Shown one piece after another: positions 49,301 through 52,300 of a DNA stretch of 64,000 bases. This stretch comes from Escherichia coli O157:H7. Lineage in GTDB: Bacteria; Pseudomonadota; Gammaproteobacteria; Enterobacterales; Enterobacteriaceae. Made by a program: the position numbers. The stretch's first letter is position 1; each line of letters begins with the position of its first letter. Location: assembly GCF_013167455.1 (NCBI RefSeq), contig NZ_CP038328.1. One strand, given 5' to 3'.

Positions 49301-52300
49301 TTTGTTCCGACTGGTTGACTTCGTCAGAGAGCGCTACCAGCTCACCAGCCAGTTGCTGTTGGATATGTAAAATTCGCTGCCAGCGTTGTTCGGCATTTTC
49401 AGCGTTAATCAGGCTGGTGGTGGCAATAGCGCCAGCATTTACCAGTGGCGACAGCGGTTTGCCGCCATGCAACTCTAAGGCGATAACTGAGTTAAAGGGC
49501 AATCCGGTCGGGTCAGCGCCAATTTTGTCCTGTACCGCCTGCGGGCCGACATCTTCTAACGCAAGGGCTAACGTACAGACTTTCGAGATGGATTCCAGCG
49601 CAAAGCGGTAATCACTGTCACCCGCACTATAGACGTTGCCATCGCTGGTCACGATAGCCACTGCTGCCAGTTGACCAGGCACATTCGCCAGAAAGGGAAT
49701 GTAATCGGCATTTTGTCCGCCGTTAAGTGAGTGAAATTGGGTGTAAGCCTGATCCACTGCCTGCTGTAATTTGTTTGCATCTAACATCTTTTGTTAACTC
49801 CTTTTTATAGATGCGGGAGGTAATTCCTCACCCCGGTGCCGATTTTCAGGCATCCTGATTTAACTTAGCACCCGCAACTTAACTACAGGAAAACAAAGAG
49901 ATAAATGTCTAATCCTGATGCAAATCGAGCCGATTTTTTAATCTTTACGGACTTTTACTCGCCTGGGTTATTAATTTCTTGACCTTCCCCTTGCTGGAAG
50001 GTTTAACCTTTATCACAGCCAGTCAAAACTGTCTTAAAGGAGTGTTTTATGTCACAAACTATCGACCTGACCCTGGACGGCCTGTCCTGCGGTCACTGCG
50101 TTAAACGCGTGAAAGAAAGTCTCGAACAGCGCCCGGATGTGGAACAAGCGGATGTGTCTATCACTGAAGCGCACGTTACCGGGACTGCCAGTGCAGAACA
50201 GCTGATCGAAACCATCAAACAAGCGGGTTATGACGCATCTGTAAGCCACCCAAAGGCTAAACCGCTGGCGGAGTCATCAATCCCGTCGGAAGCACTGACA
50301 GCGGTTTCTGAGGCGCTTCCGGCAGCGACCGCCGATGACGATGACAGCCAGCAGTTGCTGCTGAGCGGCATGAGCTGCGCCAGCTGTGTCACCCGCGTAC
50401 AAAATGCGCTGCAAAGCGTACCGGGCGTCACTCAGGCACGGGTAAACCTGGCGGAGCGTACTGCGCTGGTGATGGGCAGTGCCTCCCCACAAGATTTAGT
50501 GCAGGCGGTGGAAAAAGCGGGCTACGGCGCGGAAGCGATTGAAGATGACGCGAAACGCCGCGAGCGCCAGCAAGAAACCGCCGTCGCTACGATGAAGCGC
50601 TTCCGCTGGCAGGCAATTGTTGCACTGGCTGTGGGTATCCCGGTAATGGTCTGGGGGATGATCGGCGATAACATGATGGTCACCGCTGACAACCGCAGCC
50701 TGTGGTTGGTTATCGGCCTGATAACCCTGGCAGTGATGGTTTTCGCCGGCGGCCATTTTTACCGCAGTGCATGGAAAAGCCTGCTGAACGGTGCGGCGAC
50801 GATGGATACGCTGGTGGCGCTGGGTACGGGTGTGGCGTGGCTCTATTCGATGAGCGTCAACCTGTGGCCGCAGTGGTTCCCGATGGAAGCGCGGCATCTT
50901 TACTATGAAGCCAGTGCGATGATTATCGGTCTGATTAATCTCGGTCATATGCTGGAAGCGCGCGCACGTCAGCGTTCTTCAAAGGCGCTGGAGAAATTAC
51001 TCGATTTAACTCCGCCGACGGCGCGCCTGGTTACTGACGAAGGTGAAAAAAGCGTGCCGCTGGCGGAAGTTCAGCCAGGCATGCTACTGCGCCTGACGAC
51101 GGGCGACCGCGTGCCAGTAGATGGCGAGATTACCCAGGGCGAAGCATGGCTGGATGAAGCGATGCTGACGGGCGAACCTATCCCGCAGCAAAAAGGCGAA
51201 GGCGATAGCGTCCATGCCGGGACAGTGGTACAGGACGGTAGCGTTCTGTTTCGCGCCAGTGCGGTTGGCAGCCATACCACGCTATCAAGGATTATTCGTA
51301 TGGTGCGCCAGGCCCAGAGCAGCAAGCCAGAAATCGGTCAGCTGGCGGATAAAATCTCAGCCGTATTTGTGCCGGTAGTAGTGGTTATTGCGCTTGTCAG
51401 TGCGGCAATCTGGTATTTCTTTGGTCCGGCACCGCAGATTGTCTATACCCTGGTGATTGCCACCACGGTGCTGATTATTGCCTGTCCGTGTGCGCTGGGG
51501 CTGGCGACGCCGATGTCGATTATTTCCGGCGTCGGGCGGGCGGCTGAGTTTGGCGTGCTGGTGCGGGACGCCGACGCGCTGCAACGCGCTAGTACACTCG
51601 ATACCGTAGTGTTCGATAAAACCGGGACGCTGACCGAAGGGAAGCCGCAGGTTGTCGCAGTGAAAACATTTGCTGATTTTGACGAAGCGCAGGCGCTGCG
51701 TCTGGCGGCGGCACTGGAACAAGGTTCCAGCCATCCGCTGGCGCGGGCGATCCTCGATAAAGCAAGCGATATGCAGCTGCCGCAGGTCAACGGTTTCCGC
51801 ACATTGCGCGGGCTGGGCGTGAGCGGTGAAGCTGAAGGTCATGCGTTATTGCTGGGCAATCAGGCGCTGTTAAATGACCAGCAAGTTGATACTAAAGCGA
51901 TTGAAGCAGATATTTCAGCTCAGGCATCGCAAGGGGCAACGCCTGTGCTGCTGGCGGTTGACGGGAAAGCGGTAGCCCTGCTGGCTGTACGCGATCCGTT
52001 GCGTAGTGATAGCGTGGCGGCGCTGCAACGTCTGCATAAAGCGGGATATCGTCTGGTGATGTTGACCGGGGATAACCCAACCACCGCCAATGCGATCGCC
52101 AAAGAAGCAGGGATTGATGAGGTGATCGCCGGGGTGCTGCCGGACGGTAAAGCCGAAGCGATTAAACGCCTGCAAAGTGAAGGACGTCAGGTGGCAATGG
52201 TGGGCGACGGCATTAACGATGCGCCAGCGCTGGCCCAGGCGGATGTCGGCATTGCAATGGGCGGCGGCAGTGATGTTGCCATTGAAACCGCGGCGATTAC

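Follow-up and report, generated by a model that had tools for sequence, protein, structure and literature searches.

Introduction

The copA promoter (PcopA) of Escherichia coli K-12 is among the best-characterised bacterial promoters. Cryo-EM of CueR transcription-activation complexes on PcopA, accompanied by in vitro transcription and promoter-binding gel-shift assays, placed a core CueR box, CCTTCC-N7-GGAAGG, within a 19-bp spacer, with an overlap of 3 bp between the repeat and the -35 element and a distance of 2 bp from the box to the -10 element (PMC8169799). Activation is weakened or lost when the box is displaced by 1 bp, and RNA polymerase binds PcopA poorly without CueR (PMC8169799). 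The same CueR signal, with the requirement for a 19-bp spacer, is given in PMC1526738, a copA-lacZ assay is described in PMC5329002, and earlier studies of the K-12 promoter (Outten 2000, Stoyanov 2001, Petersen & Moller 2000) are cited in PMC8169799.

According to PMC8113463 and PMC1526738, MerR-family promoters like PcopA carry a dyad operator inside an over-long spacer of 19-20 bp (19 bp for MerR/Pmer and SoxR/PsoxS, 20 bp for ZntR/PzntA) and are activated by DNA distortion. What sets PcopA apart from the other promoters of this family is its half-site, ACCTTCC, which is specific to the CueR/HmrR copper branch. The cueO promoter of K-12 (PcueO; TTGACC TTCCCGTAAGGGGAAGGAC TATGCT) resembles PcopA in its TTGACC -35 element, its CCTTCC-N7-GGAAGG box in the same register and its 19-bp spacer. 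It differs from PcopA in the central N7 (CGTAAGG in PcueO, CCTTGCT in PcopA), in the base after GGAAGG (A instead of T) and in the -10 hexamer (TATGCT instead of TAACCT), and it drives another gene, cueO.

Here, we analyzed a 64-kb stretch of an E. coli O157:H7 chromosome (hereafter the window), in which a feature upstream of copA is, with a probability of about 0.96, the canonical CueR-dependent sigma-70 promoter of that gene; CueR binding and copper induction are predicted from its sequence. This promoter is an already-known textbook element, base for base that of K-12, and its value here is that of a positive control and a correct annotation. The cis element, the pump and the sensor of copper efflux are all present in this O157:H7-type window. 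A mildly informative by-product of the analysis is that K-12 appears to have lost a 25-kb island, leaving a 95-nt scar ahead of cueR.

Results

Architecture of the copA promoter

The features discussed below are listed in Table 1. A preliminary description of this DNA had read a TTGACC element, a CCTTCC-N7-GGAAGG dyad and a -10 element with a 19-bp spacer at positions 49979-50009, and every one of these readings proved accurate to the base. The distance from the end of the -10 hexamer to the copA ATG (50049), which had been put at 40 bp, is 39 nt. Within the promoter, the ACC at 49982-49984 serves both as the 3' end of the -35 hexamer and as the outermost 3 bp of the left CueR half-site, and the core box ends at 50001 with the -10 hexamer beginning at 50004, the register published for PcopA. 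From the usual distance between a -10 element and the start site, transcription of copA is predicted to begin at about 50016-50017.

Table 1. Positions of the copA promoter elements, the copper genes and the neighbouring island genes in the window
Feature	Position	Strand	Remarks
PcopA -35 hexamer TTGACC	49979..49984	+	Read directly; same in K-12
CueR operator, perfect 7-7-7 inverted repeat ACCTTCC-N7-GGAAGGT	49982..50002	+	14/14 match; the only one in the window
Core CueR box CCTTCC-N7-GGAAGG	49983-50001	+	Inside the extended repeat
Spacer TTCCCCTTGCTGGAAGGTT	49985..50003	+	Exactly 19 nt, counted between TTGACC and TAACCT
PcopA -10 hexamer TAACCT	50004..50009	+	Begins 2 bp past the core CueR box
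Start-site region and 5' leader with Shine-Dalgarno AAGGAG	50010..50048	+	Identical to K-12
copA, Cu(I)-exporting P1B-type ATPase, 834 aa	50049..52553	+	NCBIfam equivalog NF007952
cueR, Cu(I)-sensing MerR-family regulator	21863..22270	-	Acts in trans; 27.7 kb from the operator
Island HlyD-family adaptor	22267-23442		Adjoins cueR
Island type I secretion ABC permease/ATPase	about 23439-25601		
Island giant BapA/SiiE-like adhesin, annotated siiEA			Internal stop; ORFs of 1,461 and 5,188 aa
Island TolC-family gene	45867-47222		
ybaT	47560-48852		

Comparison with K-12 MG1655 revealed only two differences in the whole 261-bp glsA-copA intergenic region, T for C at 49959 and G for T at 49967, both of them upstream of the -35 element. 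From 49968, 11 bp upstream of that element, to the copA start codon the two sequences are identical, with the same -35 element, dyad, 19-bp spacer, -10 element and leader; the downstream gene is also the same. In addition, a 313-bp stretch around the site is a 100% match to O157:H7 strain PV15-279, in which the downstream gene is annotated copA. The preliminary description had called the site a CueR operator of the suboptimal-spacer, MerR-type architecture, an assignment that a spacer length other than 19 bp, or the absence of the dyad from K-12 copA, was to overturn. The spacer was recounted as 19 bp, and K-12 copA carries the very same dyad; together with the published geometry (PMC8169799), the identity to K-12 PcopA bears the assignment out, and no feature of the sequence speaks against it.

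The site shows the features that define a CueR-dependent promoter of the MerR type, namely the core repeat, its position inside a 19-bp spacer, the register of the box, a copper-homeostasis gene downstream and a cognate CueR with an intact DNA-binding domain and residues C112 and C120. PcopA falls outside the canonical constitutive sigma-70 class, which is defined by a spacer of 17 +/- 1 bp together with A2 and T6 in the -10 element. The optimum spacer for sigma-70 is 2 bp shorter than the 19-nt spacer found here. A sigma-70 consensus scan that takes spacers of 16-18 nt only and demands A2 and T6 in the -10 hexamer returned no sites in 49788-50060, which covers the whole glsA-copA intergenic region. 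This empty result is expected, because the scan admits only 16-18 nt spacers, and it counts against a canonical promoter and not against PcopA; it is consistent with a promoter that needs remodelling of its spacer.

The same results bear on a second way of reading the promoter, in which TTTAAC (50002-50007) would be the true -10 element and TTGACC-N17-TTTAAC an ordinary promoter with the optimal 17-bp spacer that CueR merely occludes or helps. This arrangement can indeed be read in the sequence, and TTTAAC fits TATAAT at 4 of 6 positions. However, TTTAAC lacks A2 and T6, the two weightiest positions of a -10 element, both of which are present in TAACCT, and the scan demanding them gave nothing at 16-18 nt spacing. 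Moreover, the 19-bp register is kept in PcueO, which offers no comparable 17-bp alternative. For the identical sequence, cryo-EM and mutagenesis set the -10 element 2 bp past the core box with a 19-bp spacer, and RNA polymerase was seen to bind poorly when CueR was absent (PMC8169799). TTTAAC as the -10 element is thus already refuted by the published structures, and we regard it as hardly credible.

Further matches to the promoter and operator patterns were sought across the window. TTGACC-N19-TAACCT has a single exact match, at PcopA; two further matches with one mismatch lack the dyad and were rejected. A search with the extended dyad, allowing up to 3 mismatches, was carried out for extra CueR sites near glsA, cueR or the island, and its three intragenic matches with 3 mismatches were likewise rejected as close to chance (3 found, 1.6 expected).

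The copper pump and its regulator

The protein encoded downstream of the promoter shares 99.0% identity with K-12 CopA (8 substitutions) and scores 1747.9 bits on its NCBIfam model, the cut-off being 1316. Both N-terminal CXXC motifs (CGHC and CASC) are present, as are CPC, DKTGT and GDGIND. For CueR, a tblastn comparison gave 99.3% identity to the K-12 protein, with D103N as the only change, and the metal ligands C112 and C120 are intact. It scores 308 bits on NF007590 (cut-off 244) and 206.6 on TIGR02044 (cut-off 147.4), and stays under the curated cut-offs for ZntR, MerR, CadR and SoxR. Furthermore, it matches the PDB CueR chains 1q05, 4wlw, 6ldi and 6xh7 at about E 4e-88, and also 7c17 and 6xh8. 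The structures 4WLW, 4WLS, 6LDI/7C17 and 6XH7/6XH8 belong to the K-12 PcopA system.

The preliminary description had also stated that the wiring of the copper regulon was confirmed to be intact. Its parts are in place as far as the operator, CopA and CueR are concerned; 'confirmed' goes too far, since the sequence displays parts only and cueO lies outside the window.

By analogy with K-12, these parts would work together as follows. CueR, supplied in trans from cueR, would bind as a dimer to ACCTTCC-N7-GGAAGGT within the 19-bp spacer, with RNA polymerase on the opposite face of the DNA (PMC8169799). In the absence of Cu(I), the -35 and -10 hexamers would be overly distant and out of phase, and the promoter would be poorly bound. 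With Cu(I), and also with Ag(I) or Au(I), CueR would bend and under-twist the spacer and bring the hexamers to a distance like that of a 17-bp promoter, while contacts between Cu(I)-CueR and the sigma-70 non-conserved region would lead to copA transcription (PMC8169799). Induction by Cu(I), Ag(I) or Au(I) and binding of CueR are established for the identical K-12 sequence (PMC8169799), and from this identity we infer that the same binding, bending and copper induction would take place in this strain.

Conservation of the operator within E. coli and across species

We compared three 31-bp blocks among complete E. coli genomes, counting genomes with a match, which are not phylogenetically independent of one another. 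The promoter/operator block (49979-50009) is identical in 5,405 of 5,422 genomes (99.7%), the upstream flank (49948-49978) in 397 and the 5' leader (50010-50040) in 5,300, which makes the operator the most constrained of the three. In the other genomes the operator block has one difference (15 genomes) or two (2 genomes); in strain ET201, which carries two, the changes lie in the central N7 and in the -10 hexamer (TACCCT), and the half-sites are untouched.

Beyond E. coli, one genome for each of 100,044 species was scanned with the pattern TTGACCTTCC-N7-GGAAGG-NN-TA-NNN-T. At least 123 sites at no fewer than 120 loci were found, against about 2 matches estimated by chance for uniform composition (19 specified bases, 298 Gb, both strands). 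As the pattern already required the operator, the informative part of this result is confined to the free positions and the identity of the neighbouring genes. Among the matches listed, 95 of the 123 sites have T at the free position that follows GGAAGG, and this T completes the extended half-site. Genes were assigned within 1.5 kb downstream in the direction of the promoter, and for 88 of these 123 listed sites the first detectable gene encodes a CopA-like ATPase/HMA protein (40), CueO (4) or a MerR/CueR-like regulator (44). The matches listed include the enterobacterial taxa Citrobacter, E. albertii, Enterobacter, Kluyvera, Serratia, Photorhabdus, Rahnella and Yersinia, as well as Oxalobacteraceae, alphaproteobacteria, clostridial lineages, Chloroflexi and Leptospira. 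A divergent cueR-like gene lies upstream of the site at 13 loci among the matches listed, 10 of which are copA loci of Enterobacterales, and no cueR was present within 1.5 kb at other listed copA loci of this order (E. albertii, Citrobacter). Thus, the position of cueR varies and the operator stays constant.

These observations leave very little room for the possibility that the palindrome is fortuitous, or that the site has decayed and has no function in this genome. The core CCTTCC-N7-GGAAGG has one match in the window, where 0.11 are expected with one mismatch allowed. Its near-invariance in E. coli contrasts with a polymorphic adjoining flank, an identical architecture stands upstream of copper genes in many phyla among the matches listed, and an intact cognate regulator is encoded in the window. 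To the extent that sequence can decide, a chance or decayed dyad is already refuted, and we consider it extremely improbable.

The neighbourhood of cueR

In K-12, cueR follows ybaT with 124 bp between the two genes. In the window, ybaT and cueR are separated by a 25-kb type I secretion/adhesin island, and therefore cueR is farther from the operator than in K-12, where the distance is about 2.6 kb. Relative to K-12, the window has a further insertion of 2.6 kb between cueR and ybbJ. At the other side of cueR, the start codon of cueR and the stop codon of the HlyD-family gene overlap in the sequence ATGA (22267-22270).

In K-12, the 95-nt segment directly ahead of cueR aligns with the final 95 nt of the window's HlyD-family gene. 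This K-12 remnant still translates like the C-terminus of the intact protein after a 1-nt frameshift (A7 versus A8), and, in alignment, the C-terminus of the window's HlyD-family protein reaches the last positions of the HlyD profile TIGR01843. The presence of such a decayed remnant means that the K-12 layout is most simply explained by a deletion in an ancestor that carried the island; judged from these sequences, the island layout is probably ancestral and the K-12 layout derived. The preliminary description had spoken of a changed cueR context in the window. The neighbourhood does differ from that of K-12, but the 95-nt remnant indicates that K-12 probably has the changed layout. We also searched 5,426 complete E. 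coli genomes for the island junction, and it is present in 959 (about 18%), O157:H7 included. Nearly all genomes without it, among the matches listed, break at the same point, and this shared break point suggests that the K-12-type junction arose once, by deletion.

These layouts raise the question of whether an intact operator might sit in a quantitatively rewired circuit, in which CueR would be supplied through transcription of the secretion/adhesin operon, or from a promoter internal to it, in place of the K-12 arrangement downstream of ybaST. Because cueR comes last in a secretion operon that has partly decayed, it could be expressed at another level than in K-12. Several observations lean in this direction: cueR is the last gene of this operon, with its start overlapped by the HlyD-family stop codon; the adhesin gene has an internal stop; and the only weak -35-like motif that we could see by eye in the common 95 nt, an interpretive reading, differs between TGGATT (O157) and TTGAAT (K-12). 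Moreover, a simple consensus scan, too crude to exclude a cueR promoter, covered the 430 nt ahead of cueR and detected nothing resembling a sigma-70 promoter on the cueR strand. On the other hand, the two layouts share the 95 nt ahead of cueR, in which the ribosome-binding site AGGAGG lies, so any proximal cueR promoter would be common to both as well. The island layout is also found in 959 genomes, and the operator is invariant across the two layouts. In addition, the Cu(I) sensitivity of CueR is extreme, with a Kd of about 2e-21 M quoted in PMC8169799, and modest changes in the CueR level should therefore matter little. A search of the literature for O157 copper-regulon data turned up no direct information on cueR expression in island-bearing strains. 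On balance, we consider such rewiring unlikely.

It is similarly doubtful, on this evidence, that in the island-bearing E. coli, O157:H7 among them, cueR is coupled translationally to a type I secretion/giant-adhesin operon as its last gene. If it did, the 'cueR promoter region' of K-12 would be the decayed 3' end of the HlyD-family gene of that operon. The amount of the copper sensor would then be tied to the expression of adhesin secretion in the island layout. In the K-12 layout it would depend instead on read-through from ybaST or on a promoter that evolved anew, with the PcopA operator invariant in both.

As a separate observation on the island, the repeats of siiEA differ in length by about 300 bp between the window and O157 strain PV15-279.

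Gene order around cueR

In strain K-12 MG1655, the 'intergenic' DNA between ybaT and cueR contains what is left of an HlyD-family adaptor gene: 95 nt of its 3' end, frameshifted (positions 8899-8993 of L002, the K-12 ybaT-cueR locus). In the window this type I secretion adaptor gene is unbroken, and its stop codon overlaps the ATG of cueR (ATGA). Given the remnant in K-12 and the intact gene in the window, the layout bearing the island, a 25-kb type I secretion/adhesin block between ybaT and cueR, looks ancestral, with K-12 appearing to be the product of a deletion. The island junction is present in 959 of the 5,426 complete E. 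coli genomes; among the matches listed, most of the genomes without it break at one shared position.

K-12 also lacks a stretch of 2.6 kb that lies between cueR and ybbJ in the window. Its O157:H7 annotation comprises a YadA-family autotransporter adhesin, a lipoprotein and hypothetical proteins, and a REP/naRNA4-like element (19279-19356) marks its ybbJ-side edge. Within the island, RefSeq annotates the split BapA/SiiE-like giant repetitive adhesin gene as siiEA with an internal stop. Near 37717-37753, O157:H7 strain PV15-279 has about 300 bp (one repeat unit) more than the window, and in that strain the adjoining TolC-family ORF, intact here, is annotated as frameshifted.

Coordinates of features in the window (entries marked Rfam are matches above gathering score)
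Feature	Position	Strand	Remarks
HlyD-family gene, 3' end	22267-22366	minus	compared with the K-12 remnant
cueR-ybbJ segment	19224-21862		
Giant adhesin gene	25605-45764	minus	ORFs of 5,188 and 1,461 aa
TolC-family ORF	45867-47222		451 aa
CpxR-type repeat	49944-49958	minus	21 bp 5' of the PcopA -35
CpxR-type repeat	19900-19914		
CCCAAAG heptamer	50249-50255		inside copA
naRNA4 (REP-derived)	19279-19356		Rfam
naRNA4 (REP-derived)	52665-52742		Rfam; directly 3' of copA
naRNA4 (REP-derived)	59802-59879		Rfam
sRNA sroB/ChiX	54040-54123	minus	Rfam; between ybaK and ybaP

The copA promoter and its surroundings

A predicted CpxR-type box, the perfect direct repeat GTAAA-N5-GTAAA, lies upstream of PcopA, the CueR-dependent copA promoter; two such repeats occur in the window against 0.06 expected. 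copA is among the PSSM-predicted genes with an about 2-fold response to CpxR (PMC9600279). Compared with K-12, the glsA-copA intergenic region differs only at 49959 and 49967, both between the CpxR-like box and the PcopA -35. The window carries the minority alleles at these positions, and only 397 of 5,422 genomes, including O157 and O145 strains, match it exactly across the 31-bp block 49948-49978.

We also scanned genome contigs, one genome per species, for the exact PcopA architecture (TTGACC, CueR box, 19-bp spacer and TA...T; loci L006-L125). Among the matches listed, it also occurs in Clostridiales, Oscillospiraceae and Lachnospiraceae (clostridial), Chloroflexi and Leptospira. Since a MerR/CueR-like gene usually lies directly 3' of the sites in these lineages, again among the matches listed, their arrangement suggests autoregulated operons.

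Inside copA, the slippery heptamer CCCAAAG occupies the position of the K-12-annotated programmed frameshift that yields the soluble Cu(I) chaperone CopA(Z), and the 45 nt around it show no difference from K-12.
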